DNA of 25,434 nt from a virus. Its lineage: Duplodnaviria; Caudoviricetes. Made by a program: the position numbers and the translations under genes. The stretch is from positions 1 through 25,434 of IMG/VR virus record IMGVR_UViG_3300017540_000017. One strand, 5' to 3'. This document shows, in pieces, positions 1,058-25,340 of the stretch (within the stretch, counting starts at the first letter, position 1; each line of letters starts with the position of its first letter). The notes under the pieces were generated by a model. The model did not search any database. It saw only the letters and a program-made list of their open reading frames with translations, and was not told the DNA's origin.

Positions 1058-2488
1058 CTAGCGAGGCAATTGCGACAACAACTCGCCCCTGAATTTCGAA
1101 AAGTTGGACCTTGGCCAAGACGTATCGTGGTTCACTTCGGCGTAAGCACGCCAATCGCCATTGCCGAATCGCTCCCTCATTCCGTCCAGAGCAGGCTTCA
1201 TGACCGCTGCCATCTCAATGTATTCAGACCTTAGCGGCGAAAACCGCCGCTGAACTTCAGCCTCCGAAAGCTGCGGTGCTAGGTGACCATACGTCCGATC
1301 CACCGTGGCAATGTCGGCGTGGCCAAGCTGCTTTGCCACAATGGACAATTGCATTCCGGCCTGCACCAGTTGGCTGGCATAAGTGTGCCTGAGACTGTGA
1401 AACACCGTACTCTTCGGGAGCCCGCAGGCATCGGTCAGATCGCGAAACAGGTGTTTGTAACGCTCACTCCAGGGACGCCCGTCCTGGTTTCGGAAAACAT
1501 ATTCGTGGCCCTGCCGCTCACGGCAGAGTGAAAGAAAGAAAGCCATCCCCTCTTCCGGCAGGAGGACGAACCGCGGCCTATAGTTCTTCGATGGAGAAAC
1601 GTAGATTCCGAAACCCTCACGGCCAACGTCTGCAACTTTGAGATAGACCAATTCACGCACTCTGCAGCCGGTATAAAGGGCGCCAAGAACAAGCTCCCGG
1701 AGGTCCGGACGGGCCGCCTCTATAAGCCGCGTGCATTCTTCTCTTCTGAGGAAGACCATGCGTGGACGGTCGACATTCGGAAGGTGCCTCAGGCACCGTT
1801 GCGGGCGATCAGTATCAATCTCGCCATTGTCCCAAGCTAGCGCAAATGCACCACGCAGGGTGCTGGTCAGCGCATTCATCGTCTTCTTTCGTTTGCGCAG
1901 CGCCTCGGGATCCAAATCGCTGATATCGCGACGCGCACCGATGGCACGATTCCCGTATTTTGGGGGCGTTTCCAGAACGTCGACGCATAGCTGGTGAAAG
2001 TGCCGCCCATTGAAATCAGCCAATGGCACGCTCGCAACGCGGCCCGCCAAGTGGTGATTGATCATGGTAAGGACCGAATAGAAGGTTGTTGGTGCTGCAG
2101 CCAGTCGCTTCCATTCAAGATAGTCTCGGAGCGCATGCCCAACGGTATAGACCGGCCCGATAGGGCAGTAGATCAGTTGGCCGTTGTACCGGACGATGTG
2201 GCGCGAAATGGCCTTCTCGCAAATTGAAGTCGAGGCAAACCATTGCTCGGCTTCCCTGACTGCCCCCTTGAAGGTGAGACCGGGATAGCGGGCGCTTTCC
2301 ATCGGCCCCAGCGAAGTCTCATGATAGAGACCATTCCTGGCTCGGTAGCGCGCCTTCCAGATGGCTTTGGTATTGCCCTTGCAGAGAATTCCGACGTGGC
2401 GCCCCGGGCCAAGTTCATACCAATATGGAGCCCTCCTAGGAGCGAGACTGTCTCTGATCTGCTGTGACGTAAGGTCATACTTTGCCAT
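1058..2488 (-). CDS. Second tyrosine recombinase / site-specific integrase (476 aa)
   Basis: TGCR (Arg), SKN (Lys), FHSLRH (HxxR), LGH...TYGH (His, Tyr); GGAGG upstream of ATG 2488 (preferred over the ORF-track start 2527). Confidence 0.92.
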   Translation of the reverse strand: MAKYDLTSQQIRDSLAPRRAPYWYELGPGRHVGILCKGNTKAIWKARYRARNGLYHETSLGPMESARYPGLTFKGAVREAEQWFASTSICEKAISRHIVRYNGQLIYCPIGPVYTVGHALRDYLEWKRLAAAPTTFYSVLTMINHHLAGRVASVPLADFNGRHFHQLCVDVLETPPKYGNRAIGARRDISDLDPEALRKRKKTMNALTSTLRGAFALAWDNGEIDTDRPQRCLRHLPNVDRPRMVFLRREECTRLIEAARPDLRELVLGALYTGCRVRELVYLKVADVGREGFGIYVSPSKNYRPRFVLLPEEGMAFFLSLCRERQGHEYVFRNQDGRPWSERYKHLFRDLTDACGLPKSTVFHSLRHTYASQLVQAGMQLSIVAKQLGHADIATVDRTYGHLAPQLSEAEVQRRFSPLRSEYIEMAAVMKPALDGMRERFGNGDWRAYAEVNHDTSWPRSNFSKFRGELLSQLPR

Positions 2489-2548
2489 GCCGCTGATCCT
2501 CCAGGCCTGAATGGCCGTAAGGATCACACGCTCGCGTGGCGCTGTCGC

Positions 2549-3208
2549 CTAAATAACTTCCCGCTCCTTCTGCTTTAGTCCTCTCCGGCGCCTGCGCTCA
2601 TTGCGCTTTCTGGCCCACGAAAAATCAGCTGGCCGATCGGAGAAGAAAGAGCTGAATGCATCATCAGCGGCCCATGAAACGATGCTGGATGTCTCCTGCA
2701 CAGGTGCCGCGAGGCTATCCAAAGTATCCTCGATTTCAGGCTCCTCAGGCAACACCCCGAAACCTGCATTTTCGTTATTCTGCGATGCCCTGCCGAGCAG
2801 TTTTCGCGCAATGCATGCAAGCGCGCGGTCTTTGCGACGCCTTCCTGTTTCAGGGTGAATGCCGGCCTTCTCGAAACACCAGTCCTTGAAGTGCAGGTGC
2901 GGGTTGGCCATCGCCCATACCCAGGCGGATAAAGCAGCACGATCTTGCTCCTTAGCGACCAGTGCCAGCCAGCCCAGTGCTTCCTCACCTTCGGAGACCT
3001 GCTGCGGTGTCGGCCGGCGTAGTATCCGCTCCCAGAGCAACCGCGCTTCTTCCTCTAATCGCTCCTTGCCCCAGCCGTTCACGTCCGCCCAGGAATGGGC
3101 ATAGCCGAGATTGAGGGATCGGGCATGCGACGGCCCCACCTGACCGCCACTGAAAATGGCGATTTCCGCCGCCTGAATCAGGCGCTCTGAAATCTCGCCT
3201 GGGTTCAT
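2549..3208 (-). CDS. Putative phage late transcriptional regulator (DUF6362-like, antiterminator position)
   Basis: Last phage-type gene of the replication operon; ISERLIQAAE...RRPTPQQVSEGEEALGWL pattern and an HTH-like GIHPETGRRR segment; function inferred from position. Confidence 0.55.
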   Translation of the reverse strand: MNPGEISERLIQAAEIAIFSGGQVGPSHARSLNLGYAHSWADVNGWGKERLEEEARLLWERILRRPTPQQVSEGEEALGWLALVAKEQDRAALSAWVWAMANPHLHFKDWCFEKAGIHPETGRRRKDRALACIARKLLGRASQNNENAGFGVLPEEPEIEDTLDSLAAPVQETSSIVSWAADDAFSSFFSDRPADFSWARKRNERRRRRGLKQKEREVI

Positions 3209-3399
3209 GGATCGAGCTTTCCTCGCGTGGTGGATGCGCGCCAGGTCTCACCGTGGCACTTGATGACGAATATTCCCTCGCCGGTTTCCCGGTTCGTGTC
3301 GGCAATCTCAGGCGTGAATTCCTCAACATCCTTTCCGCACACGCCGCAGAACAGAATGTCACCTATGCCGCCGCGCGGTATTCGAGGAACCCTGACCAT
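3205..3399 (-). CDS. Small hypothetical protein, possible zinc finger
   Basis: CGVC...CHG; overlaps both neighbours. Confidence 0.7.
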   Translation of the reverse strand: MVRVPRIPRGGIGDILFCGVCGKDVEEFTPEIADTNRETGEGIFVIKCHGETWRASTTRGKLDP

Positions 3400-3845
3400 T
3401 AGATCCTCCTCCGATCATCCAGCAGATCGAGCTGATCCGCATTCGGGCCAAACCTACGATATAACCGCTCGTAGACCATACCGCCCAAGGCAAACCGTTG
3501 GGGAATGAGGCCCCTCAAATCCTGGCACATGAACTGCAGTTCACCAGCGGGGATATGGTCCCACGTTTCCAGCCAAGCGCCGGCTTCTCGCTCGATGAGC
3601 GCCTGACACGCGCAAACCATATCCGAGACCATCCAGAGCCCCACCTCATCTAGCAAGAGCTTGTGATTGCCTGCTTCCATGAGCGTCGATAGCACGAGCC
3701 GCAAATGCCCTTCCCCATGACGTCGATATATGCGGGCGAGCGTTTCCACTGCGCGCGTTTCGCCGGGCTCTGGGTAGCGGTGCTTGTCGATGATGCGGAT
3801 GCCGTACTCATCGCATAGGCTCTGGATGTGAGCGGGGATGATCAT
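3399..3845 (-). CDS. Hypothetical phage protein (148 aa)
   Basis: Protein-like composition; coupled to neighbours. Confidence 0.8.
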   Translation of the reverse strand: MIIPAHIQSLCDEYGIRIIDKHRYPEPGETRAVETLARIYRRHGEGHLRLVLSTLMEAGNHKLLLDEVGLWMVSDMVCACQALIEREAGAWLETWDHIPAGELQFMCQDLRGLIPQRFALGGMVYERLYRRFGPNADQLDLLDDRRRI

Positions 3846-4018
3846 GTGGGTTCAACCCCGTTCTTTCGAAGGAAGGCCGCGAACACCTCATCGTGCTTCG
3901 CCATCTCCCAAACAAAGCCGTGAGAAAGGAGCCCGCGCCGGAAGGTTTCCAGCGTATCGGTGTAGGAGGCTCGATAGCCAACCGGTCTGGGGAGTGCGGA
4001 AAAGTCGAATGAGTTCAC
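3842..4018 (-). CDS. Small hypothetical protein (58 aa; not in ORF track)
   Basis: GGAGG SD, GTG start overlapping the upstream TGA, stop overlapping the next ATG; MNSFDFSALPRPVGYRASY...GVEPT. Confidence 0.7.
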   Translation of the reverse strand: MNSFDFSALPRPVGYRASYTDTLETFRRGLLSHGFVWEMAKHDEVFAAFLRKNGVEPT

Positions 4019-4326
4019 GGCCGCCTCCGCGTCTCTACTTTTGTGTACCGGGTTGATCCCTTCTGCCTGATGAGCGTCGGGAACAAGGCATCTCCTGCAG
4101 AGACGGCAGCTGAAATCACGGCGCCATCCCGCCGGTATTTCCGCTCCTCGATCTTGTGTTTGATGCGCCAGGCCGCGAGCTCGGCTTCCTCCGCCGTACC
4201 GAAATAGAGTACGCGCCCTTCCCTATGCTCTCTCACCAGGAAGGCCTCGGAGCGCCACGCTACTCGGAAGCGTCCGATATAGGCGCCGCCTATGGTCTTC
4301 TCCGCGAATGCCGTGGAGTGATTCAA
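4015..4326 (-). CDS. Hypothetical phage protein (103 aa)
   Basis: ATGA overlap with the dnaB stop; SD within the dnaB tail. Confidence 0.75.
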   Translation of the reverse strand: MNHSTAFAEKTIGGAYIGRFRVAWRSEAFLVREHREGRVLYFGTAEEAELAAWRIKHKIEERKYRRDGAVISAAVSAGDALFPTLIRQKGSTRYTKVETRRRP

Positions 4327-5768
4327 AGCATCGCCTCCATAAGCTCGGGCTGGTCGTTCACTTGCTCGCTGCGATAGCGGGTAAAACGGGCCTCGAAGAT
4401 GAGATTGCGGGTGATGGCGGCATTGCCGAACCTCACCTTGATCGCGCCGATCTGGGCGATGTCCTCTCCACCCTCGCGAACAGCTGATGGGAACACCTTC
4501 CCAATTTTCTTCCAGTCGCTCTCAGACGAGGCGATGGCCTTCCGCTCCTCGAGGAATTTCAGATAGCGGTAGACGTAGAAGATGGCGTCGTAGGCCTGCT
4601 TGGCCGGATCACCGCCAAAGAGGTCCGCTGAGATTGGCCGGGGGTTGTCGCGCTTCATGCCGTAGCTGTTGCGCTGATTGAGGACGAGCCACGCCGCCCC
4701 GGTCTGCTCCGCGCCGACCTTGAACACCTTGTTGATGTCCTTGGCCTTGGTGCCCTCGTCCGCCCGTCGGTCTTCCGGCTTCACCGCGCCAATATGGTCA
4801 ACGACGATCAGCGGGACATTTCCGTTGCCGAAGCGCTTCACAAAGGCGCGGGCGAAGGCGAGGAGCTGCGGCGCGCTATGATCTGTGCATTTGACCACCT
4901 CGAAAGGCTGGCGATCGATCCATTCGGAGAAGTCGACGACCGTCTCCCATTCCTTCTCTGAGAGGTCGCCTGCCCGCTGCCGTCGCGCCTCGATGCCGTG
5001 CTCTTGCGCCACCAACTGCCGGATGCACTGCTCGGCGGATTGGTCGAAGCTCAGGAACTGGACCGGATGCCCCTTCTTGAGCGCGTGCATGATGATCTGC
5101 AGGGTGAGCGAGGTTTTGCCCTCGCCTGATGAGGAAAGAAGCCCGTAGAGGTTTCCTGCCTCGAATGATGGCTCGGAGATGACCGCGGCAATCTCCGGCA
5201 GGCAGATCGGCACACCGAGCACCTTGCCACGCTGGCGGGCCTCTGTGAGGCTCTGAAGGTACTGCCGGCCATGGGAAGCTGTTCCGCTGGCGCTCACGCG
5301 CTCGGCGCGGAGCTTAGCAAGCATATCCTCGACCGGGACCGCCTCCGTCAGTGGGTCCATGCCTGGGCGCCTCTGGTAGAGCTTGGCAACCGTGTCCTCG
5401 CAGGCGACGATGATCTGCCGGGACATCCAAGCATCGAAGATCGAGGCTGCATAATCCTGTGCCATGACGATGGTCACGGCATCGGCGCAGAGCGCGGCGA
5501 GATATTGCGCCACCGTCATCTCTCCGACCTTGGCATCGGCCGGGAGGAAATCGCGCAGGGTGATCGGGTCCGCTCTGCGGCCGACGGTGATCAGATCCCC
5601 CGAGGCCTTGAAGATGTCGCGGTGCAGCGGCTCAAAGAAGTGCTCAGGCCGCACTATACGCGAGACCAGGTCGTAGCAGGCGTTGTTCACCATCACGGCG
5701 CCGAGCAGTGCTTGCTCGGCTTCGATGTTGTGCGGGACTTCGCGGATGGGATCGGCGAGCGCGTTCAT
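4323..5768 (-). CDS. dnaB: DnaB-like replicative helicase (divergent, 481 aa)
   Basis: N-terminal PHNIEAEQALLGA; Walker A SSSGEGKTS; Walker B IVVDH; KVRFG finger motif; start at ATG 5768 with GAGGG SD. Confidence 0.92.
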   Translation of the reverse strand: MNALADPIREVPHNIEAEQALLGAVMVNNACYDLVSRIVRPEHFFEPLHRDIFKASGDLITVGRRADPITLRDFLPADAKVGEMTVAQYLAALCADAVTIVMAQDYAASIFDAWMSRQIIVACEDTVAKLYQRRPGMDPLTEAVPVEDMLAKLRAERVSASGTASHGRQYLQSLTEARQRGKVLGVPICLPEIAAVISEPSFEAGNLYGLLSSSGEGKTSLTLQIIMHALKKGHPVQFLSFDQSAEQCIRQLVAQEHGIEARRQRAGDLSEKEWETVVDFSEWIDRQPFEVVKCTDHSAPQLLAFARAFVKRFGNGNVPLIVVDHIGAVKPEDRRADEGTKAKDINKVFKVGAEQTGAAWLVLNQRNSYGMKRDNPRPISADLFGGDPAKQAYDAIFYVYRYLKFLEERKAIASSESDWKKIGKVFPSAVREGGEDIAQIGAIKVRFGNAAITRNLIFEARFTRYRSEQVNDQPELMEAML

Positions 5769-6682
5769 CCGATCGCCCTCCCTGGTACCAAGCCGTTGAC
5801 TGAGATCCCGATTGCCTGTTCCCTTTCCGAAATGGGCAGGGATGGGAGAATCCACAGATGGCGTGGGGTTATGAGCGCGACCGCATCTACAACCGCCGGC
5901 GTGACATTCACGCAAGATTTCGGGGTCAACAACAGGGAGGCATAATCACACCAGCCGCTCACCCCCTGGTGATCATCATTACAGGAGAAGAGGGCCTGGA
6001 GCACGGCTATGCCGACCGTTGGCGAGATGATGGTGCGTTCGAATATTTCGGTGAAGGACAGATCGGTGATATGCAAATGCTCCGCGGGAACGAAGCGATC
6101 GCGCGACATTCCGAGCGTGGCAAAGACCTTCTTCTCTTCAGGAAGGAGCGAAGCGGTCTCCGATTCATCGATGAGCTGGTCTACGAGGCACACCACATCG
6201 AACGTGCACCTGACCGACAAGGCGATCTTCGTAATGCAATCGTTTTTGAGCTTCGTCCCCTGGATGGAATAGCAGAGGCTATAGGCGAGCCTGAAGCCAT
6301 CGCTCACCCTAACCTCGCACTCATGCGGGCCGCTGCTTTTCGAGCGGCGAACTTCGCCCCCGATCGCCGCCCGGTACAGGGAGCCGCGATCGAACGAAGC
6401 CGAGCAGTGAGGGACTATGTCGTGGCCCGTGGGAACGGCCGGTGCGAGGGGTGCGAGAGTCCAGCTCCATTCATGCGCGCTAACGGCACTCCTTATCTGG
6501 AGCCACACCACTTGCGCAGACTGAGTGATGGCGGCCCGGATGATCCGCGTTTCGTTATTGCGCTTTGCCCGAACTGCCATCGCCGAGTTCATCATGGGAT
6601 GGACGGCCAGGCCTATAACACAGAGCTTTTGGACCGAATGGCACTCATTGAGCCGCCGGTTGAGGTTTGAACGAAAGCTCAC
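5765..6682 (-). other. Antisense 'bridge' ORF (305 codons) coupling ruvC-like gene to dnaB across the SRA-HNH gene
   Basis: GTG 6682 overlaps ruvC-like TGA; its TGA overlaps dnaB ATG; no internal stop; product not recognisable. Confidence 0.45.
5858..6670 (+). CDS. SRA-HNH modification-dependent (McrA-like, type IV) restriction endonuclease
   Basis: N-terminal YNRRRDIH..GQQQGGIITP..GYADRW..EYFGEGQIGDM..GNEAI (SRA-like); C-terminal CEGC...EPHH...CPNCH HNH; inverted relative to the operon. Confidence 0.85.
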   Translation: MAWGYERDRIYNRRRDIHARFRGQQQGGIITPAAHPLVIIITGEEGLEHGYADRWRDDGAFEYFGEGQIGDMQMLRGNEAIARHSERGKDLLLFRKERSGLRFIDELVYEAHHIERAPDRQGDLRNAIVFELRPLDGIAEAIGEPEAIAHPNLALMRAAAFRAANFAPDRRPVQGAAIERSRAVRDYVVARGNGRCEGCESPAPFMRANGTPYLEPHHLRRLSDGGPDDPRFVIALCPNCHRRVHHGMDGQAYNTELLDRMALIEPPVEV

Positions 6683-7230
6683 GCCGCCGCCCTCACCCGT
6701 TGCAGCAATTTCAGTTCTTGGCAGTGGCCAGCGCACCAGAGAGCTATTACGGCGGCATCCCGCGAATCGGCGTTCGGGCTGTCAATGCGGAGCATGTCGC
6801 AGTACGCCTTGGCGCGCTGCTTGGGCGCGCCGCGGATATGGTCCGGGATGATGCTCTGCCACGTCCTTGGCGAAACCAGCGTGCAGGGTACGTTCTGCCC
6901 AAGCACAACCATTTCAGCCGCGCCGGCGAGCCAGTTGAGCTGCATAATCGTGTTGGCGTTGATGGTACTGGTCTCCTCCTCAACGCCCATGAGGGTGCGG
7001 GTTTTCTTCTTGAACTGCGGGATGAAGGTCAGAGGCGCTTCCATGGCCGCGAACGCCGGCTGATGCTGGCGGATCAGCTTAGGCAGCTTCCGGCGCATAT
7101 CCTGCGTCTTCTCGAAGGCGTTGGAGCCCTCCAGCTTGATCGAGCCGGAGAGTATGGCGGATGGCGTCTTATCCGTATCGTGGATGGCCCAGCCGAGCTT
7201 GGAAGCCACATCGAGCGCCAGGATCAGCAT
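6679..7230 (-). CDS. RuvC-like Holliday junction resolvase
   Basis: MLILALD..GWA, AMEAP and DSRDA acidic motifs of the RNase H fold; GGAGG before ATG 7230. Confidence 0.8.
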   Translation of the reverse strand: MLILALDVASKLGWAIHDTDKTPSAILSGSIKLEGSNAFEKTQDMRRKLPKLIRQHQPAFAAMEAPLTFIPQFKKKTRTLMGVEEETSTINANTIMQLNWLAGAAEMVVLGQNVPCTLVSPRTWQSIIPDHIRGAPKQRAKAYCDMLRIDSPNADSRDAAVIALWCAGHCQELKLLQRVRAAA

Positions 7231-7265
7231 GGAACCTGCCTCCATGCGGGGCGATTTGGCCGGGT

Positions 7266-7517
7266 ATGACTATTGGATCGTGGAGAACGCCCATCAGAAT
7301 ACGCGCCGGACAGCGGGGCACCGTGCTTACGTTTGTCAATGATGCGCTGAGTGCTGCGGTGCTCCTTTTCCACGGCTGGCCCGAGCAGGCAATGCTGACC
7401 CCGAAGCATCTTGAGGCTCAGGAACGGTGTCATCTCTGCATGGTGGGCAGATGCGATCCTGAGGAAGCTCGGAAGGCGTTCATCAAGGCCGCAGAGGAAG
7501 CCGGCATTCTGGATTGA
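7266..7517 (+). CDS. DUF982 family protein
   Basis: W..PI.I...A..LL..WP...H..A...C......EEARKAFIKAAEEAGIL. Confidence 0.85.
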   Translation: MTIGSWRTPIRIRAGQRGTVLTFVNDALSAAVLLFHGWPEQAMLTPKHLEAQERCHLCMVGRCDPEEARKAFIKAAEEAGILD

Positions 7518-7556
7518 GGCGGGAACAAGCCCCCTCGCCTGCGGTTCGGCAGCGCT

Positions 7557-7808
7557 ATGGTTGTTGGTGGATGGAAGCCGGCTGTTTCGGTTCATGCGGG
7601 GCGGCACGGCGGCAGGAATTACGTCATCACCGATGCGGCGAAGGCCGCAGACGTACTCCTGCATGATTGGCCGGATAACGCGCCAAGAGGCCGGAAGCAC
7701 CTGAAAGCGAGAAAGGTTTTGCTGCGCTGCCTGGAAGGGAAGTGCGATCCCGGACAGGCGAGACAGGCATTTGTCGAGGCTGCGGAGGAAGCAAATATCC
7801 TGGCGTAG
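7557..7808 (+). CDS. DUF982 family protein (second copy)
   Basis: LLHDWP...H..A.......L......ARQAFVEAAEEANIL. Confidence 0.85.
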   Translation: MVVGGWKPAVSVHAGRHGGRNYVITDAAKAADVLLHDWPDNAPRGRKHLKARKVLLRCLEGKCDPGQARQAFVEAAEEANILA

Positions 7809-7810
7809 CG

Positions 7811-8731
7811 TCATTCGGCCGCCTCCGCGAAGAGGTCACCGAAGACACCCGAGGCCTCTGCATCGATCAGGTTCTTGATCGCCTGTCGAAAATAGGCCGG
7901 GTTGAGCTCTGTACCGATGAACTTGCGGCCTTCCTCGATCGATACAACGCCCTCAGACCCGATACCCATAAAGGGGGAATAGACGACATCGCCCCGGTTC
8001 GACCACATGCGCAGCGCGCGCCGCGTGATGTTAAGCGGCATTGGGCAAAGGTGCTTCTCGTCTTTGTCGCTACGAGCAACCTTGACGTTCAGCACGTCCG
8101 TCTCAGGAAGGTCTTGGCGCGGATAGTTCCACACCGGTGAGGCGTATTGCTGCCACTCTTCGACGGGGAAGGTTTCCTTGGTGTGGGTAACCGGTCGGAT
8201 TTCCTCACCATCACTCGCCCACTTGCGGAACACGAGTAAATACTCTGGCAATCCCATGCGGGAGAAAGTGGAGTCGGCGCGTAGGGTCTTCCAAAGCAGA
8301 CCGTGCGCCTTCGTCTTTTGCATCTCGCGAACGGGATCGCGCCAGATCGTGATCCTGGAATGGAAGTCCCATCCCTCTTCGATGTGGAGCCGAGTGCAAT
8401 CATCAGAGAAGGGCCGGAGCCCCGCCGTGCCTCGCTCACTGGAGTTCTGATAATAAACGAGATCCTTGACGTGAATAGCCGTCAGGCGCCCCGGGCGCGT
8501 TGCACGAAATTTCTCGCGGACAAGGAACCGGTATTGTTCAAAGAATTCATCATCCGACGCGCAGTTGCCCATGTCAGCGACGCTCTCGCTGTAGATGTAC
8601 AGCGAGGAGAACGGCGGCGAGTAGACGCTGAAATCTATACTGTTGGCAGGCAGAGCCGCGGTGAACGGCACGCAGTCAGCGCAATAAGCATTGAAGCTTC
8701 GGCCTGCGGCCTGGTCGATGACATTCGTCAC
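7811..8731 (-). CDS. DNA N4-cytosine/N6-adenine methyltransferase, beta class
   Basis: Motif IV SPPF precedes motif I PFMGIGS; HLCP motif; GTG start overlaps the helicase stop. Confidence 0.92.
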   Translation of the reverse strand: MTNVIDQAAGRSFNAYCADCVPFTAALPANSIDFSVYSPPFSSLYIYSESVADMGNCASDDEFFEQYRFLVREKFRATRPGRLTAIHVKDLVYYQNSSERGTAGLRPFSDDCTRLHIEEGWDFHSRITIWRDPVREMQKTKAHGLLWKTLRADSTFSRMGLPEYLLVFRKWASDGEEIRPVTHTKETFPVEEWQQYASPVWNYPRQDLPETDVLNVKVARSDKDEKHLCPMPLNITRRALRMWSNRGDVVYSPFMGIGSEGVVSIEEGRKFIGTELNPAYFRQAIKNLIDAEASGVFGDLFAEAAE

Positions 8732-10110
8732 GCGGCTTCCCCCCTCATCCATACGGGCAACTGCATGGGCTGCGTTGGCTGGTAATCGATCTTGATCTGC
8801 CGGCTCTCGTGGGCGCGGCGCATGGCGGCGTACATCTCCGCCTTCATCGCTTCGTGATCGGCGCTTTTGCGCATCACCACGTCCCAGATGTTGCGCTCCG
8901 TGTCAGCCATCGCAATATGGCATTCAACTTCGCGCGACTGACCGAAGCGCCAGCAGCGACGGACCGCCTGGTAGAACTGCTCGTAGGAAAAGGAGAGGCC
9001 GACAAACGCCACACGGGCGCAGTGTTGCCAATTAAGGCCGAAGCCGGCCACCGAAGGCTTGCTTACAATGATGCGCAGACTGCAGTCGGAGAAAGCGACG
9101 AGACGTTCCTCCTTCATGGCGTCCGGCATCGAACCGCGAACCTCGACCGCATCGGGAATACGCTCGGTCAGCGCATCGGCCTCATAGTCGGTGTCGCACC
9201 AGATCACCCAAGCCTCATTCGGCTCGGCTGAGACGATTTCGGCAATCCTCTCTGCCCGCTGGTCGGCCGTCAGTCTTTTCTCGCGATGAATCGACGTTGC
9301 CGAAGTTTCGGGGATACGAAATAGCGTTTCATCTGCGCCTATTGAGATGTCGGCCGCGACCACATGCCGATGGATGTTCAGCTTTGGGAGGATGAAGCCC
9401 TCATCGGTAAACCCGAGATCCGACGGTTTGGATATGCAGCGTGACCAGCTCGCCACCCAATTCCAGAACGGTTTTACCGCGTGCCCCTTGAGACGATACC
9501 GCCCCATATTCGTCTGGTCAGCAATGAACCAGCGCGACAGCATCTCATTCGATGGCATTACGCCCAAAAATTGGGAATGCTGTCCGAGCTCCATATGATC
9601 GTTTGGCGCCGGCGTGGCCGTGCACGCGAGCCGGAACGGTGTTTGCGCGAACATCGATATGAGCTTACGCGAGGTCGCGCCGGTGAAGTTCTTGATGATG
9701 GAACTCTCGTCCAGTATCACGCCGCCGAATGCGTACGGGTCGAAATTGTCCACCTTGGCGTAATTTGTGACGTTCACCCCGGGGCCGATCTCGGATTGAT
9801 TACGCACAACGCGCGCTTCCAGGCCGAACTTCTTCGCTTCGCGCACATGCTGCGGCGCGACGGCGAGAGGAGCGAGCATTAGTACAGGCTTCCCGGTATG
9901 CTCGGAGACAACCCTGCCCCACTCCAGAGACACCAGAGACTTGCCGAGTCCGGTATCAAGGAATGCGGCACCGGAACCGACAGAGAGAAGAAATTCAGTG
10001 ACGGCGCGCTGGTACCCGAACATGCCGTCGTGGAGCGGCGGGATACTCGTCAGGCCCCGCTTAGGTGCCTCTACGGCTCGGCGGCGGAGAAGCTCGAGAT
10101 AGTCTTGCAT
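8728..10110 (-). CDS. SF2 (SNF2-related) helicase
   Basis: DTGLGKS, LDESS, TATP, GLNWQ, QAVRRCWRFGQ. Confidence 0.92.
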   Translation of the reverse strand: MQDYLELLRRRAVEAPKRGLTSIPPLHDGMFGYQRAVTEFLLSVGSGAAFLDTGLGKSLVSLEWGRVVSEHTGKPVLMLAPLAVAPQHVREAKKFGLEARVVRNQSEIGPGVNVTNYAKVDNFDPYAFGGVILDESSIIKNFTGATSRKLISMFAQTPFRLACTATPAPNDHMELGQHSQFLGVMPSNEMLSRWFIADQTNMGRYRLKGHAVKPFWNWVASWSRCISKPSDLGFTDEGFILPKLNIHRHVVAADISIGADETLFRIPETSATSIHREKRLTADQRAERIAEIVSAEPNEAWVIWCDTDYEADALTERIPDAVEVRGSMPDAMKEERLVAFSDCSLRIIVSKPSVAGFGLNWQHCARVAFVGLSFSYEQFYQAVRRCWRFGQSREVECHIAMADTERNIWDVVMRKSADHEAMKAEMYAAMRRAHESRQIKIDYQPTQPMQLPVWMRGEAA

Positions 10111-10111
10111 A

Positions 10112-10204
10112 TCACCCTGCCCCCACCAGAACGGCGACGAAGCCGACGATCGCCGGGATCGCCATGGCCCAAATCACCAGCATCCATTTTGCTTGAACGG
10201 ACAT
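10112..10204 (-). CDS. 30-aa single-TM peptide (not in ORF track)
   Basis: MSVQAKWMLVIWAMAIPAIVGFVAVLVGAG fills the gap between two operon genes. Confidence 0.55.
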   Translation of the reverse strand: MSVQAKWMLVIWAMAIPAIVGFVAVLVGAG

Positions 10205-10212
10205 GATTGCGC

Positions 10213-10743
10213 TTACTCGGCGGCTTCGGGGAAAGGCTCGTCTGCGGTCTCATCCGCCTTCATGGCGTTCCGCTTTTCCATCGCGGCCTGGAGCTCTTCG
10301 CGCATGATGCGCTGACCCTCGTGCCAGCCTTTCATCCAGGCTTGGCCCTGCTTGCTATCGGCTCCGTAAGGCGGCTCGGGGTTCTTGCCGGCCAGGCCCG
10401 CGACCTTGCCTTCATCGAAACAGCGCTCGTCGGCAGGGCGCCGGTCGGGGAACAGATCGCCTTGCTCACCGGGTGGCAGAGCGTTGAAGGCCTTAGCAAT
10501 CTCGATCAGCTCCTTGATCTCGGCCACGAAGATGGACGTGTCTTCCATCGTGGAGAGCCGGATCGCCGCATCGATCTCGGAAAGCTTGAAGCCGTCGCCC
10601 TTAGCTTCGGCACGGATCTGTTTCCGGCGTTCTCGGAGCGGCTGCATTTCCTCCTCAAGCTCAAGCAGCCGGCGCACATGGTGCATGCGCAAGGCGCTCT
10701 TCTGCTCAGGTGTCAACTCGCTGTTGTGGCCGATATCAGTCAT
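10213..10743 (-). CDS. GapR/DUF2312-like protein with a C-terminal RMF-like motif
   Basis: RLLELEEE...RKQIRAEAKGDGF.....AIRL (GapR-like); EG..AG..GK....PY.......W.KGW.EG (RMF-like). Confidence 0.7.
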   Translation of the reverse strand: MTDIGHNSELTPEQKSALRMHHVRRLLELEEEMQPLRERRKQIRAEAKGDGFKLSEIDAAIRLSTMEDTSIFVAEIKELIEIAKAFNALPPGEQGDLFPDRRPADERCFDEGKVAGLAGKNPEPPYGADSKQGQAWMKGWHEGQRIMREELQAAMEKRNAMKADETADEPFPEAAE

Positions 10744-11180
10744 GTTGCGTCCTTTCGGCTCGGAAAATCAGCATCGCGCCCCAGGCCTGAAAGCGGCCGC
10801 CCAAGGCGATCAATTTCTGCCCGGTAAAGATCAGGATCGATCGCCCGAAGCTTCGCGGCGAGGACGGCGTTTTTCTGCTGCGCGATGAAGAGCTCATGTT
10901 TGGCACGGGTCAGGCTTCCCTCGTTGTGCTGGTGAACGGCCTCGCGCACGGTGTCTGCGATGTCCGCTGGAATTCGTTTGATCTTCTTCCAGCGAAGCCG
11001 CTCGATGATGGTTTGCTTGAGCCCGGTGGCGCGGGCCGCCCTCCAGTTCTGTTCTTTGGCTGTCCCCGTGCCGCCCAGCAGGCGGACGGCAGACGCCATC
11101 TCATCGGCAATCAACTCAGCACGCATGATTTCCGTCTCGCGCCGTGAGATTTCCGTGGCGCGCCCCTGATTTTCCGTCAT
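10740..11180 (-). CDS. Putative CII-like transcription regulator
   Basis: HTH-like RAARATGL....IERLRW; located downstream of cro; start at ATG 11180. Confidence 0.6.
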   Translation of the reverse strand: MTENQGRATEISRRETEIMRAELIADEMASAVRLLGGTGTAKEQNWRAARATGLKQTIIERLRWKKIKRIPADIADTVREAVHQHNEGSLTRAKHELFIAQQKNAVLAAKLRAIDPDLYRAEIDRLGRPLSGLGRDADFPSRKDAT

Positions 11181-11370
11181 TTGGAATTTCTCGCTCGCTA
11201 TCTTCGTGACGGTCGAAGACGGCGACTGAGCCAGCGCCGTGCTGGCCAACGAGCCGAAGCGGCTTGATTTCGAATGGAAGGAAAGGAACGACGAATGAAC
11301 CGATCGGAGAACCACCAAGTCCGTAAATCGGTGCAGCTATCGTTTGATTTTGCGGACGCGAGCGGGGCAT
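11116..11370 (-). CDS. Possible small hypothetical or linker ORF
   Basis: TGATG coupling to the upstream gene; overlaps the start of the CII-like gene. Confidence 0.3.
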   Translation of the reverse strand: MPRSRPQNQTIAAPIYGLGGSPIGSFVVPFLPFEIKPLRLVGQHGAGSVAVFDRHEDSEREIPNDGKSGARHGNLTARDGNHAC

Positions 11371-11558
11371 CAAACACCCCCTCGCCGCGCCGCGTCCTCG
11401 GGCGAAACCCGAGGAAGGAATTCATCTGGAATCCGGACTGGCGCCCCTTCTCGACCGGCATGATGCCAATGATGCCGAAGCGTGGCGCAGGCATAGCCCG
11501 CAAGCCAGCCAATGGCAGATCCAACCAGCGCGCTTAGGAGGATGGCTAATGCCGTCAT
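11370..11558 (-). CDS. Small membrane protein (62 aa)
   Basis: Hydrophobic N-terminus; ATGA overlap; GGAG SD. Confidence 0.65.
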   Translation of the reverse strand: MTALAILLSALVGSAIGWLAGYACATLRHHWHHAGREGAPVRIPDEFLPRVSPEDAARRGGV

Positions 11559-12265
11559 GCGTCGACACTCCTCAGGAATGTCGGGAGACCTTCCGCGGCG
11601 CGCAGCTCATCAACGAACCTGATAACCTTAGCCCAAGTCAGCATCCTTGGCCGGCCGCGGCCGCCGGAGATCTTGTTCTTCCCCTGCCAACCGCTGAGCG
11701 TGTAACCTCGCTCTTCGAGGAACTTCTCTATCGAATAGCGATCCGTTGCCTCCCCAGCATCGAACCGACGCACGCCGTTTCTGGCTATGAATTCCTCTAT
11801 GAGCTTCTGCTCATTGCTGATGACGTGGAGAGCTGCATTGTCGTCTGGCTGCGGTTCACGCTGCCAATGCCGGCGTGTTTCGCCCCTGAACACTGCGGAA
11901 GCCCTTACCGTGGCATTCCGGCCAACGCTGCTGTGTCGCTTTTCGGCGTTCTTGTTGCCGGTTCCCGGCGTTATCAAACGGATGCCGAGCCGATTTGCTC
12001 TGCCGAGGATGGAATTTCGGCTTCTGTCGAGCCTCGCTCCGATTTCGCTGCCGGTGCGCCCCTCTGCAGCCATCTCGGCAAGGATTCGGTCTTCCTCTGC
12101 CGTCCACGATACCCGCGCCGGCCGGGCTTTATCACAGTGCTGGCGAGCCCCGTATTGAGACCTGCCATCCCCCCTGCCGGCCGGCTGGCCCTGGATCAAG
12201 GTGGGCGTTCTCTCACTACTGGCCGCAACATGGCGGCGGTCATGCACCAGAGCGTCTGAATTCAT
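11555..12265 (-). CDS. GcrA-like HTH (Myb-like) regulator
   Basis: WTAEEDRILAEM..EG.TGSEIGARL.RSRNSILGRANRLG; ATG 12265 overlaps the upstream stop. Confidence 0.75.
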   Translation of the reverse strand: MNSDALVHDRRHVAASSERTPTLIQGQPAGRGDGRSQYGARQHCDKARPARVSWTAEEDRILAEMAAEGRTGSEIGARLDRSRNSILGRANRLGIRLITPGTGNKNAEKRHSSVGRNATVRASAVFRGETRRHWQREPQPDDNAALHVISNEQKLIEEFIARNGVRRFDAGEATDRYSIEKFLEERGYTLSGWQGKNKISGGRGRPRMLTWAKVIRFVDELRAAEGLPTFLRSVDA

Positions 12266-12450
12266 GCTGCCCACCACACGATGGCGACGAGCCAGAAAGC
12301 GGCGCAGCCGAGACACACCACGCGCCAGGCCCACTGGCTTCTTGTTTCGGGATAGAAATCCTGGGGAGACGGGGAGGAGTTCGCCTCCCCAGGACGCGGC
12401 ACCACGCAAAGGGGGCTAGCGCGGTGATAGGTGTTGCCGCCGCCCCTCAT
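12262..12450 (-). CDS. Small protein with a C-terminal TM helix (62 aa)
   Basis: ATGA overlaps with cro and with the GcrA-like gene; WAWRVVCLGCAAFWLVAIVWWAA. Confidence 0.6.
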   Translation of the reverse strand: MRGGGNTYHRASPLCVVPRPGEANSSPSPQDFYPETRSQWAWRVVCLGCAAFWLVAIVWWAA

Positions 12451-12689
12451 ACGGCAGGCTCCGGCATGTGGAAGAAATCGGCAGGAGAAAGGGCGACGTC
12501 GTTTTCGCGCGCCCACGACAGGAGCTTTTGAGCATCGCCAGGGGGAATAATGCCACCCGTCCCTCCCCGCTCTTGCGGGTACATCCAACGATACACGCGT
12601 GAGACATGCTTGCCGGTAATCTCGGCAACCTTCTCGACGCCAATTTTGGCGATCACAGACCGGGCGGGTTCGAGGTGTTCGGGCTTCAT
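12447..12689 (-). CDS. cro: Cro-like repressor
   Basis: 80-aa HTH VEKVAEITGKHVSRVYRW...GGTGGIIP, divergent from cI. Confidence 0.88.
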   Translation of the reverse strand: MKPEHLEPARSVIAKIGVEKVAEITGKHVSRVYRWMYPQERGGTGGIIPPGDAQKLLSWARENDVALSPADFFHMPEPAV

Positions 12690-12691
12690 AA

Positions 12692-12781
12692 CCGCAATAT
12701 TTGCGATTATCGCGAGTTTATGTCAAGCGAATTTTGCGATCTTCGCGATAGCGATTTTTGCGGCTTTCGCGATTATCGCGG
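12692..12781. promoter_or_regulatory. OR-like operator cluster and cro promoter
   Basis: TTGCGATTATCGCGA 12701-12715, TTGCGATCTTCGCGA 12734-12748, TCGCGATTATCGCGG 12767-12781; minus-strand CTTGACA at 12727-12721. Confidence 0.85.
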
Positions 12782-12782
12782 T

Positions 12783-13463
12783 ATGAGTGATCCACAAAGA
12801 GAAATCCGCCTCTGGTTGCAGGAGGAATTGGCGCAGCGGCCGCACGGCACCAAGGGGCTTCTGGCGAAGTTCTTGGGTGTTCGGCCGGATGCGATTACGC
12901 GCATGGCGAATACGGATCCTCACAAGGAGACAAGGGAGATCCGCGCGCACGAGCTCGTTAAGATGCGCGAATTCTTTCAGGAGGCAGAGAAACAACACGC
13001 GGATATTAGTGTCGTTCCAGTGATGGGCTATCTAGGTGCTGGCGCAGAAGTAGAGCCTGAATACGAGCAGGTTCCCCCTGAAGGGCTCGACCAGATCCAG
13101 ATCCCGTTCCAGATGCCCGACGACATGATCGCCTTCAAAGTTCGCGGCGAGTCAATGCTGCCCGTCTACAAGGATGGTGCCGTCATCATCACCTATCGCG
13201 AGCAAAAGAAGCCGCTGCAAGCGTTCTATGGCGAAGAGGCCGCGGTACGCACCTCTGACGGCCGGCGCTTCATTAAGACCATCATGCGCGGCCAGGACGA
13301 TACCGTAAACCTGCTTTCCCACAACGCGAGCCCGATCGAGGGTGTGCGGTTGGAGTGGATCGGCGAGATATTCGCGGTCATCCCACCAGGCGCACTCCGA
13401 AGTGTCGGAAAAAGCGTTGAGAAGGAAGGCGGGATCCAGGGTCAGTTGAAACTGAGAGCCTAG
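12783..13463 (+). CDS. cI: CI-like repressor (HTH plus S24 autocleavage peptidase)
   Basis: N-terminal HTH (LAKFLGVRPDAITRM), GAG cleavage region, VRGESM (Ser), FIKT (Lys); start at ATG 12783, no SD. Confidence 0.92.
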   Translation: MSDPQREIRLWLQEELAQRPHGTKGLLAKFLGVRPDAITRMANTDPHKETREIRAHELVKMREFFQEAEKQHADISVVPVMGYLGAGAEVEPEYEQVPPEGLDQIQIPFQMPDDMIAFKVRGESMLPVYKDGAVIITYREQKKPLQAFYGEEAAVRTSDGRRFIKTIMRGQDDTVNLLSHNASPIEGVRLEWIGEIFAVIPPGALRSVGKSVEKEGGIQGQLKLRA

Positions 13464-13493
13464 TCTAGGGAGCATTGGACAGTGCCAACGTTT

Positions 13494-13522
13494 TTGAAAT
13501 GTTCTCAAATTGTGCTATCAAT
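13494..13522 (+). promoter_or_regulatory. Putative promoter with a near-consensus alphaproteobacterial LexA box
   Basis: TTGAAA...TATCAAT surrounding GTTC-N7-GTGC (13501-13515). Confidence 0.45.
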
Positions 13523-13558
13523 ACCATACAGTACCAACTTAGACGCTGAGGTGACAAC

Positions 13559-14062
13559 GTGACTGATACGCTGGTTGCGCCTGATTATGTTCGCGTCAAA
13601 CAGGCGGTTAGGGATATCCACGAGAGGTTTGGAATCACCACCCCGCCAGTGAACCCGGTCGAGATCGCGCGCAACCTTGGCACTAAGGTGCTTTTTGCTA
13701 GATTCGCCGAGGGGTTTGGGAACATCTCTGGTTTCTACGACTGCGATGACAATACCATTTACGTCAATCATGACGAGTTCCCCTTACGGCAGACATTCAC
13801 GGTAGCTCACGAACTGGGCCATAAGGTGCTTCATGCTGAGTGGGCCAAATCGTCTGACTACAAAATGTTAATGCGCGATTCAGATTACTCCGGCAGCGAG
13901 CCGCATGAGAAAGAGGCAAACGCGTTTGCGGCACACCTCCTTGTGCCAAGATTTTTGCTCGATCAGTATTGGAGAGGCAATTCTATCGAAGCATTGTCCC
14001 GACTGTTCGCGGTTTCCGTGCCCGTAATTAAAAACAGGCTTTCGATCGAGTATGGCGTCTGA
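13559..14062 (+). CDS. ImmA/IrrE family metallo-endopeptidase (no HTH)
   Basis: RQTFTVAHELGH (HExxH) and EKEANAFAAHLLVP. Confidence 0.92.
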   Translation: MTDTLVAPDYVRVKQAVRDIHERFGITTPPVNPVEIARNLGTKVLFARFAEGFGNISGFYDCDDNTIYVNHDEFPLRQTFTVAHELGHKVLHAEWAKSSDYKMLMRDSDYSGSEPHEKEANAFAAHLLVPRFLLDQYWRGNSIEALSRLFAVSVPVIKNRLSIEYGV

Positions 14063-14438: not shown

Positions 14439-14896
14439 GGCTGCCTTTTTTGACTTTCATTAATAGACCTCCAAAAGGATGGTCCTGTGAAGGCCACCCT
14501 GCCCTGCCTCGCTCCTGGGCGGGACCAAGCATCCGTGAAGCCAATTTGAACCGACAGGTAGTTTTGTTTTCCCGGACCCTACCGGGCTGTGACGGCATCC
14601 TCGCACTGGTCAGGTGGTCTAAGGGTACACGCCGTCCAACTCGTCTTCACATCAGTCCTGTCGTTATCCCGCGGCTTGCAAGGCCATTCTCGGGCGGGCC
14701 ATCAACCCCGTCTGGCTTCGTCCGGCGATTCGCGGCACCGGCACCGTTTGGACAATTCATGCACCGGATGATCGGCGTGGCGGGGCAATCGTCCGTGAAG
14801 ACCGCCGCTTTGGCACCTTGACCGCTTCATCTTGCCGGGAACCTCCGAGCAGACACAAGATTTTGCGATTTCAGTGCCGAGAGGCAGCAATTTCGA

Positions 14897-14925
14897 TTGC
14901 ATCCGCAGTTACGTAACGGTATAAC
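14897..14925 (+). promoter_or_regulatory. Sigma70-type promoter
   Basis: TTGCAT-N17-TATAAC; palindrome GTTACGTAAC in the spacer. Confidence 0.65.
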
Positions 14926-14930
14926 AATCA

Positions 14931-14987
14931 CGACTTTGTTGCCGCGCTCTCGCCCCGGTCGGATCATCCCGCCGGGGCTCTTCTTTT
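14931..14987 (+). ncRNA. Candidate ~55-nt small RNA
   Basis: Strong promoter immediately followed by an intrinsic terminator with no ORF between. Confidence 0.5.
14952..14987 (+). terminator. Rho-independent terminator
   Basis: GCCCCGG...CCGGGGC stem followed by TCTTCTTTT. Confidence 0.8.
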
Positions 14988-15017
14988 CGCGCAATCGCAA
15001 ATGCTCGTCAACAAAAT

Positions 15018-15069
15018 TTGCGATCTTCGCGATTTTCTTCTTGACTGATTTTGCGATTATCGCGAATAT
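15018..15069 (+). promoter_or_regulatory. OL-like operators and PL-like promoter
   Basis: TTGCGATCTTCGCGA 15018-15032 and TTGCGATTATCGCGA 15051-15065, identical to the OR sites; CTTGAC at 15040-15045. Confidence 0.85.
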
Positions 15070-15135
15070 CTCCCCATCAACACCGCCGGCACGAAGAAGC
15101 GACCGCCGATCTGCCGGGAACTGATGGGGATGAAG

Positions 15136-15459
15136 ATGAATGCCCTCGCAATCACCACCGCCGGCCTGACGCGAGCGCTTAGCGGCCTTGCTGCGGAACC
15201 GACGATCTCCGACGTTCACCGCTGGGGTTTGCCACTCGGCAAGTACGCGCACTTCCTTTGGGCCATCGAAGCTACTGCGCTTCTCAAGCCCGACGCCACG
15301 ATCAGCACGGCGAAGGCGAGGCTGCAAAAAGTCATTGCACGCGACGAAAGCCGCCGGGCTGCCGGTGATTGGAAGTTCGACGCAAACCGCCTCATCGCGG
15401 CCAAGCAGCAGCTCCGCCACATCGAGGCGTTCGAGCAGCGGCATGCGAGGGCTGCGTGA
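15136..15459 (+). CDS. Hypothetical protein, first gene of the PL operon
   Basis: Protein-like ORF; alternative starts at 15124 and 15130. Confidence 0.7.
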   Translation: MNALAITTAGLTRALSGLAAEPTISDVHRWGLPLGKYAHFLWAIEATALLKPDATISTAKARLQKVIARDESRRAAGDWKFDANRLIAAKQQLRHIEAFEQRHARAA

Positions 15460-24100: not shown

Positions 24101-24303
24101 CGCGACGGGCCGCCCGCATCACTCATGATGAAGTTTCAAGGCTGCTCAAGGCAGCCAAGGCATCGGGCTTCCCTGTCGGCCGAATTGAGTATGACGGTCG
24201 CTCCGTGTCCCTTGTGATTAGCGTGGATACCGTGGAAACACCGGAAAAGACTATTGCACCTCCAGAGGAAGATGAAGGGCTGATAAGGGAGCCGAAGCTG
24301 TGA
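24097..24303 (+). CDS. Putative excisionase-like protein
   Basis: 68 aa, directly upstream of and overlapping int; function inferred from position. Confidence 0.55.
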   Translation: MTRRAARITHDEVSRLLKAAKASGFPVGRIEYDGRSVSLVISVDTVETPEKTIAPPEEDEGLIREPKL

Positions 24304-25340
24304 ATGCTCCCACCATGGAATTTAGCCTCGATCACGTCACCGCCCGGAAAAACAAGGACGGCACCCTTCGGTACTATTTTCGCCGCCGCGGTCAGCCACT
24401 CCACCGCCTGCCAGGCGAGCCCCTGTCGAGCGAGTTCATGGCGGAATACAATCGCTGTCTCAATTGGGAAGGGATGCGCGCCAAGGCCTACGAGGGCACG
24501 TTCGAGTGGCTATGCGATCAATATATGGATTCGGTCGACTTCAAGGCTAAGGCAGAAGCGACGAGGTCGGCGCGTCGCCGCGTCATCAAAACCATGGTCA
24601 ACGAGCCCCTCGAGCGGGGCAAACCTGAAAAGTTCGGCCAGGAGAAGGCGAAAAGGCTCAAGCGCATCCACATTGAAATCCTGCGTGACCGCAAGGCTGA
24701 CAACCCGAATGCCGCGAATGAGAGGCTCAAAATCTTGTCGCGCATCTTCAAGCTCGGCGTTTCCAACGGCTGGGTAGACGTCAACTTCGTTCGCGACGTG
24801 GAACGGCTGCGCGTGCCTAAAGGCGGGCATGAAACCGCCACGGATGAGGACATCGAGAAGTATCTGGCAGTGCATAGGACTGGCCCGGCACATTTGGCGA
24901 TGATGCTTCTCGTGCATACGGGCGTTCGCATTTCTGACCTTAGGATTCTGGGCCGGCAACACGTCCGCAAGGGGCTTCTGGTCTTCAAAACGGTGAAGAC
25001 CGGCGTGCAATGCGAACTGCCGATCGACCCCGAGCTCGCCGCGGCCCTGCCGATGAACAACATGACGTTTCTACTGAACGAGTGGAACAAGCCCTTCGCT
25101 TCCGACAAAGCGCTTTCTCAGCGCGTCGCAAAATGGTTCAGACAGGCGGGCATCGAGGGCGTTTCCGCGCACGGCGTGCGGAAGTGGCGCGCGACCAAAA
25201 TGGCAGAGCGAGGCGCTACAGAGTACCAGCTCATGGCCTGGTTCGGCTGGAGTGACCCCAAGGAAGCACGCCCATATGTGCAGGCGGCGAGCCGCCGCAG
25301 GCTGGCCCAAGAGGGTGCCGACCGGATGAATGCTGTGTAA
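24300..25340 (+). CDS. int: Phage integrase (tyrosine recombinase)
   Basis: RYYFRR N-terminus, TGVRISD, KTG, HGVRK, FGW, RPY; adjacent to a tRNA end. Confidence 0.95.
   Translation: MNAPTMEFSLDHVTARKNKDGTLRYYFRRRGQPLHRLPGEPLSSEFMAEYNRCLNWEGMRAKAYEGTFEWLCDQYMDSVDFKAKAEATRSARRRVIKTMVNEPLERGKPEKFGQEKAKRLKRIHIEILRDRKADNPNAANERLKILSRIFKLGVSNGWVDVNFVRDVERLRVPKGGHETATDEDIEKYLAVHRTGPAHLAMMLLVHTGVRISDLRILGRQHVRKGLLVFKTVKTGVQCELPIDPELAAALPMNNMTFLLNEWNKPFASDKALSQRVAKWFRQAGIEGVSAHGVRKWRATKMAERGATEYQLMAWFGWSDPKEARPYVQAASRRRLAQEGADRMNAV

Follow-up and report, generated by a model that had tools for sequence, protein, structure and literature searches.

Results

Two stop-free frames cross the inverted cargo of a prophage early operon

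The window analyzed here is the whole of a 25.4-kb virus record (IMGVR_UViG_3300017540_000017; 25,434 nt). A near-identical copy lies in a Chelativorans multitrophicus genome (L006; L numbers denote compared loci), and L005 has 98.6% identity. The leftward early operon of the window runs through genes for an SNF2-like helicase, a DNA methylase, a ruvC-like resolvase and dnaB, followed by small genes and a last gene of 219 amino acids (aa), the putative late regulator of the initial annotation. Two insertions in the opposite orientation lie within this series: an HNH endonuclease gene between ruvC and dnaB, and a pair of DUF982 genes between the methylase gene and ruvC (Table 1). Opposite-strand cargo is thus found between co-oriented genes of one functional block, as in a noncontiguous operon, and from the gene order we infer one transcript across the inverted cargo.

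On the operon strand, each insertion is spanned by a stop-free frame, here called a bridge, that is coupled at both ends to operon genes. These frames were described in an initial annotation of the window, and inspection of the sequence confirmed them. Bridge 1 (918 nt; no internal stop) starts at a GTG that overlaps the ruvC stop codon as GTGA, with GAGGG 7 nt upstream. It spans the entire HNH gene together with non-coding stretches of 8 nt and 89 nt, and ends in a TGA that overlaps the dnaB ATG as ATGA; GGGAGG lies 8 nt upstream of dnaB. Bridge 2 (591 nt; no internal stop) starts at an ATG that overlaps the methylase stop codon as ATGA, with GGAGG 7 nt upstream, and its TGA falls 4 nt inside ruvC (ATGCTGA), the start of which, at 7230, has GGAGG. 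Hence, Shine-Dalgarno (SD)-like words precede all four starts, those of the bridges, ruvC and dnaB. Both bridges are in the codon-aligned antisense register with all three cargo genes, and they are open because these genes lack TTA, CTA and TCA in the aligned register. Neither bridge has a Pfam, PHROG or PADLOC match. We refer to genes with and without a stop-free aligned antisense frame as open and closed, respectively.

The window by itself does not convincingly indicate more than chance. The probability of finding no stop in its HNH gene is ~0.016 at control-gene rates, the RTGA junction ends are ancestral (L003, L004 and other loci join ruvC directly to dnaB by RTGA), and one more frame with coupling at both ends occurs at chance level. 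This third frame, of 200 codons on the + strand (6667-7269), is antisense to ruvC and overlaps both the HNH stop codon (TTGA) and the start of the first DUF982 gene (ATGA). We rejected it as a mirror-image bridge: the equivalent frame is open in 17 of 55 ruvC homologues, the level expected by chance, so its double coupling is probably also due to chance. The initial annotation had taken precise coupling at both ends as its evidence. The ends are indeed exact in the window, but their RTGA overlaps were inherited from the ancestral junction. It is the comparative data that carry the case.

With respect to the cargo itself, the HNH protein matches PDB entries 6ghc and 5zmm in its HNH part only, and its C-terminal domain is of the McrA-type HNH class. 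A profile search with this protein gave no SRA match; a homologue in L083 has a weak SAD_SRA match below the cut-off, and the N-terminal domain is perhaps SRA-like. At the other site, alignment with relatives places a 291-bp insertion exactly before the ruvC ATG. This insertion brings the first DUF982 gene (DUF982-a) and a new SD without shifting bridge 2 out of frame or introducing a stop into it; sequence of the older junction persists at ~7522-7545. Judged by this alignment, DUF982-a is a later arrival than DUF982-b at the site before ruvC. DUF982 genes are multicopy in G001 and Chelativorans genomes (up to 11 per genome, often paired), and are recurrent backward cargo of these prophages.

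Table 1. Bridges, inverted cargo and operon genes of the window
Feature	Position	Strand	Basis
Bridge 1, 305-codon stop-free frame from ruvC stop (GTGA) to dnaB start (ATGA)	5765..6682	-	sequence
Bridge 2, 196-codon stop-free frame from methylase stop (ATGA) to ruvC start (ATGCTGA), over both DUF982 genes	7224..7814	-	sequence
Inverted cargo 1, 270-aa HNH endonuclease, McrA/type IV-like C-terminal domain	5858..6670	+	PF01844 above cut-off; phrog_15103 1e-82; PADLOC mREase_IV
Inverted cargo 2a, DUF982 protein (DUF982-a), 83 aa	7266..7517	+	PF06169 4e-13
Inverted cargo 2b, DUF982 protein (DUF982-b), 83 aa	7557..7808	+	PF06169 4e-14; 70% identical to single L004 copy
Second insertion, 291 bp (97 codons), exactly before ruvC ATG	7231..7521	.	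alignment with L012, L013, L017
N6/N4 DNA methylase, upstream operon gene	7811..8752 (start 8752 or 8731)	-	PF01555
ruvC-like Holliday junction resolvase, between both bridges	6679..7230	-	phrog_159 8e-11; start and SD
dnaB-like replicative helicase, downstream operon gene	4323..5768	-	PF00772, PF03796
SD (GGGAGG) of dnaB, within final codons of bridge 1	5777..5782	-	sequence
Last gene of leftward early operon, 219 aa	2549..3208	-	phrog_37864; DUF6362 match below cut-off

HNH and DUF982 genes in phage operons mostly lack aligned antisense stops

Homologues of the HNH gene were taken from the best 80 of 95 viral contigs and from genomes and plasmids; 68 non-redundant copies, including the window's sister, remained after length and redundancy filters. 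The number of open copies expected by chance was derived from 171 flanking control genes binned by GC content at third codon positions (GC3). Forty-eight of the 68 HNH copies have no aligned antisense stop, compared with 4.9 expected. Stop counts are bimodal, with zero in these 48 copies and 1-17 in the other 20. The closed group is well predicted by the control genes (127 stops expected, 138 seen), and two of the open copies have low GC3 (0.39-0.42). A contrast between TCA (0) and TCT (63) in open copies was set aside as circular, because the open group is defined by zero stops.

Openness follows genomic context, which was called blind to stops. There are 23 open copies and 1 closed copy with tight opposite-strand neighbours, 16 and 7 with loose ones, 6 and 12 in other contexts, and 3 and 0 at contig edges. 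Stop depletion extends into the 60 nt before the HNH start and is specific to one frame: the aligned frame and the other two frames have 4, 22 and 24 stops, respectively, in the 48 open copies, and 21, 22 and 21 in the 20 others. At the far end, the aligned frame overlaps the start of the following operon gene as ATGA or TRATG in 30 of the 44 open copies that have a called opposite-strand neighbour, whereas the other two frames end on the neighbour's start in 3 of 88 cases. The 30 coupled neighbours represent 11 families, among them dnaB and a head-tail-adaptor-like gene (so labelled for its resemblance to an L150 gene that was itself typed by family). Four-fold sites are saturated in most HNH pairs, with identity of 0.31-0.35 below 80% protein identity. 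Hence, the absence of stops is not simple inheritance, and ongoing selection is required. Stop-bearing copies outside phage operons, such as those of plasmid L237 (6 stops) and L209 (1 stop), nest among the open ones.

DUF982 genes behave likewise. In phage loci, 31 of 33 are open and 27 of 33 are coupled; genus-wide, 19 of 32 genome copies are open and 1 of 32 is coupled, with the shorter flanks of the genome loci weakening neighbour calling there. In the comparison that the initial annotation had proposed, TTA, CTA and TCA are thus depleted in both families relative to homologues outside such operons. Their absence from the coding frame is selected, which is the hallmark of an ambigrammatic gene, and the frequency of open frames is neither set by GC3 and codon use nor independent of context, as it would be for neutral shadow open reading frames (ORFs).

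Bridges persist with other cargo and depend on position in the operon

In relatives of the window, the ruvC-dnaB junction is empty, or holds sense-strand genes, every one of which is RTGA-coupled, or holds unrelated inverted genes. Unrelated inverted cargo at the ruvC junction is bridged in all cases read (L031, L033, L087 and L093). The L031 bridge crosses a 221-aa inverted gene with an ATGA start and a TGATG end; that of L033 crosses DUF378 cargo with an ATGA start and a GTGA end at dnaB, and remains open across 84 and 243 nt of flank; in L093, the bridged cargo is placed before ruvC. At the DUF982 site, bridges of 95 codons (L002/L013) and 98 codons (L004/L017) cover DUF982 genes that are 43-70% identical to the window copies. 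Bridges therefore persist in relatives with different cargo at the methylase-ruvC, ruvC-dnaB and further junctions; we looked among these relatives for commonly broken frames at these sites and did not find them. A single open frame can also run over several inverted genes that share one phase, as in L136, L083, L092 and L123; in L136, around the HNH gene and two DUF982 genes, it reaches ~600 codons or more. In L128, HNH cargo is bridged even though the last early-operon gene downstream of it (2266-2832) is a PHROG "transcription antiterminator".

We compared inverted genes by position at oriented ruvC loci, 48 of which were used out of 60 after removing duplicates and short or poorly called loci. 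Homologues of the 219-aa last early gene, present in 40 loci, served as the marker dividing cargo inside the operon from cargo after it. Candidates were 114 inverted ORFs drawn from the loci and 2 added by hand. Of these 116, 39 passed a Pfam or amino-acid-score filter; the other 77, which were unconfirmed or probably shadows, were excluded, and they include a 214-aa gene of L085 that is open. All 18 genes placed inside the early operon are open, with 0 stops in 315 Leu/Ser codons (mean GC3 0.65). By contrast, none of the 9 genes behind the last early gene is open, with 51 stops in 248 Leu/Ser codons (GC3 0.59). Three of the 12 unplaced genes are open. Without the window's sister, which contributes 3 of the 18, and the two hand-added cases, already seen to be bridged, the contrast is 13/13 versus 0/9. 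Unbridged inverted cargo behind the last early gene (L082:11834-13287, L090:12248-13800 and L093:13469-14227) includes a SMODS-SLATT pair, Rap1a, DUF2321 and DUF1796, and this region is a second hotspot, likely for defence genes.

Could these frames be open simply because GC-rich codon use leaves the aligned register free of stops, with the RTGA ends as ancestral relics? Long frame -1 ORFs that arise from codon usage are known (PMC3454372). Moreover, open frames occur in 19 of 32 DUF982 copies from genomes and in 17 of 55 ruvC genes, and the window has its own chance-like frame antisense to ruvC. However, chance does not account for 48 open HNH copies where 4.9 are expected, for frame-specific stop depletion in non-coding flank, for the complete separation by position, or for coupling to 11 neighbour families. 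Chance is refuted as an explanation for the family, and we give it very little weight overall; for any single copy, it is a small possibility. Given the relatives, the stop-free bridges are real and selected, far beyond chance.

The reading frame is conserved, but not its peptide

An alternative is that the bridges are true overprinted genes, encoding proteins that serve the phage, for example as inhibitors of the cargo. The bridges have proper starts and SDs, bridge 1 was annotated as a protein by a gene caller (P0063 in the protein collection), and functional antisense-overlapping phage genes exist, such as olg1 over gene 10 of Fc02 (PMC9936078). However, antisense peptide identity is equivalent for open and closed HNH pairs (0.38 versus 0.41 at 70-80% protein identity; 0.27 versus 0.27 at 50-60%), as is four-fold-site identity at equal protein distance. 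We therefore find no purifying selection on the bridge peptide. A search with bridge 1 among proteins of 167-534 aa found only bridge 1 itself, three bridges of relatives have no PHROG match, and bridge length follows the cargo, from 95 to over 400 codons. Since the peptide shows no conservation other than that of its host gene, overprinted genes are unlikely; at the family level they are largely refuted, and we consider them highly improbable. The dual-coding design suggested in the initial annotation is thus not borne out, because the peptide diverges like an ordinary shadow and bridge 1 has no relatives. The conserved property is readability of the frame between successive operon genes, and not the peptide.

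Other features of the window

Relative to the sister prophages L005 and L006, the dnaB gene has 63 differences, and the bridges and the methylase gene have 2 each; this excess suggests that the dnaB segment has recombined. A search of phage GenBank entries with positions 5600-8000 gave only one short match, in dnaB. A sigma-70 scan, performing at chance level, found no site for the inverted cargo, and a promoter and terminator scan of 2300-13600 was also at chance level (2 found versus 3.4; 11 versus 9.4). Behind the last early gene are a second tyrosine integrase gene (1058-2527, -), the other integrase gene being at 24300-25340, and a 150-aa lipoprotein-like gene (590-1042, +) with 2 aligned antisense stops. 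Two early-operon genes (10213-10743 and 11555-12409, both -) have weak matches, below the cut-off, to GapR-like and GcrA-like domains, look-alikes of host cell-cycle regulators. Elsewhere, a 205-aa ORF (14827-15444, -) without a Pfam or PHROG match opposes rightward genes. It is overlapped by + strand ORFs at 14897-15124 and 15124-15459, and the real gene may lie on either strand.

Discussion

What is the function of a selected reading frame whose peptide is not selected? We propose, as the probable explanation from sequence comparison, that the bridges are stop-free ribosome covers against polarity rather than protein genes. Rho-dependent polarity on untranslated RNA is established (PMC12360218). 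Read along the operon strand, a backward cassette would be the equivalent of a normal coupled gene: ribosomes would reinitiate at the bridge start overlapping the upstream stop codon and read on to the downstream start, and this cover would keep Rho from ending transcription within 0.6-0.9 kb of RNA that would otherwise be untranslated. Lytic read-through may, in addition, silence the cargo, as in noncontiguous operons. In lambda and P22, all six inverted genes examined carry 3-14 aligned stops and have no aligned bridge. The operons of these phages use N/Q-type antitermination, and their unbridged inverted genes would fit a role for bridges in preventing polarity.

Several observations weigh against this proposal. 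The lambda and P22 contrast is confounded by low GC3 (0.29-0.51). We found no clear Rho utilization (rut) site; the C/G ratio is 1.04 in bridge 1, which is barely C-rich, and 1.35 in bridge 2, and the best 78-nt windows resemble those of ordinary genes. The overlap at the bridge start is exact in only 16 of 31 cases, and both ends are exact in only 9 of 29, as counted with a gene caller that misses small genes. The HNH copies are kin, and a quick tree needs just 7 changes of state, 4 of them forced by strong branches; because the copies are related, a binomial P value overstates the excess of open copies. In L008/L018, an unplaced inverted gene of 89 aa, early in the operon, carries one aligned stop. 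A different operon-strand frame is open across this gene (L008:1779-2045; L018:1584-1850), which is possibly a bridge in another register.

Six HNH copies are inverted in evident phage operons and yet have 3-7 stops, and in five of these six we found no substitute ORF chain on inspection. Three (L141, L163 and L164) are upstream of a primase-polymerase gene. The others (L150, L153 and L158) are at the head-tail adaptor site of the head operon, with a second large inverted gene alongside; the same site is bridged in other phages. Bridging is therefore the common state and not an absolute requirement, and the claim in the initial annotation that such insertions are tolerated only if ribosomes can traverse them is too strong.

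Exact stop-start overlap also exceeds what protection from Rho needs, and fits equally with a bridge that is a relay for translational coupling, if initiation at ruvC and dnaB depends on a ribosome that terminates at their start site and transcription passes unaided. The downstream end is the most exact feature of bridges (30/44 for HNH and 27/33 for DUF982), and sense-strand inserts at the same junction in relatives are coupled in the same way. Folding predictions, computed without a shuffle control, place the dnaB and ruvC start regions in paired structures (-21.7 and -24.1 kcal/mol over 71 nt). However, a short ORF with its own SD would suffice as a relay, making 270 stop-free codons unnecessary, and dnaB and ruvC have strong SDs. 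We consider coupling alone to be an unlikely explanation.

Ribosomes on the bridge might instead guard the finished mRNA against RNase E, or against pairing with cargo mRNA and cleavage by RNase III. For this, too, the frame must be open over its whole length. In noncontiguous operons, the overlap is a site of RNase III processing (PMC7154746), and protection by ribosomes has been proposed for the reverse ORF of narnaviruses (PMC8316113). On the other hand, cargo transcription is expected to drop during lytic read-through, by analogy to PMC11087260, and this explanation seems to us more doubtful still. Coupling and protection from decay would both be compatible with ribosome cover against Rho, and the three are inseparable by sequence.

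More broadly, we are inclined, on balance, to see a general rule for proteobacterial prophages. Cargo and defence genes would travel as ambigrammatic drop-in cassettes whose back strand mimics a coupled operon gene, with translation per se replacing protein antitermination and allowing backward stacking at nearly any early or late operon junction. Bridges would then be a testable answer to the question of how transcription crosses a gene's untranslated back where Rho couples transcription to translation. They would also explain why a prophage is limited in the defence and accessory genes that it can acquire, and how these genes are recoded, and they suggest a route for inserting genes backward into engineered operons without polarity. 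In addition, P0063 is a warning that gene callers can annotate a junk frame as a protein. Our literature search, in a library with few subscription papers, found no description of stop-free bridges across inverted phage cargo.

The closest known arrangement is that of noncontiguous operons, such as S. aureus men and phage 80alpha cI-tha/ith, in which a gene of opposite orientation lies inside an operon (PMC7154746, PMC11034616, PMC11087260); in phages, the cargo can be switched off or on with the life cycle. In these reports, the overlap is an untranslated stretch. Crossing it is named as a difficulty, and read-through is explained by uncoupled "runaway" transcription, for Gram-positive bacteria only (PMC11034616). 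In the proteobacterial prophages described here, the overlap is occupied by an open frame that is coupled and under selection. Lambda N and Q, P4 Psu, RfaH and the Rho control exerted by upstream ORFs, which shield rut sites with ribosomes (PMC12360218), likewise let transcription pass Rho-sensitive RNA. These known means of anti-polarity are proteins or short regulated leaders, whereas the shield proposed here is a long constitutive junk frame on the back of the cargo.

Shadow ORFs of GC-rich genomes (PMC3454372) share the codon-to-codon register and junk-like peptide of bridges, but bridges go far beyond the measured shadow background: they are more frequent, depend on where in the operon they lie, continue into non-coding flank and are coupled. 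In the temperate Pseudomonas phage Fc02, olg1 and olg2 overlap gene 10 on the opposite strand, with one strand lysogenic and the other lytic (PMC9936078). There, both strands yield proteins with exclusion activity; here, the operon-strand peptide is without constraint. The codon-aligned reverse frame of ambigrammatic narnaviruses is also stop-free, and its translation itself has been proposed as the selected trait (PMC8316113). Narnaviruses are RNA viruses of eukaryotes in which, as described, the frame covers a whole segment, without an operon or stop-start coupling, whereas bridges belong to small DNA modules within operons of bacteria. That a reading frame can be under selection while its protein is not, a situation so far known mainly from narnaviruses, thus holds also for the inverted cargo of prophages.

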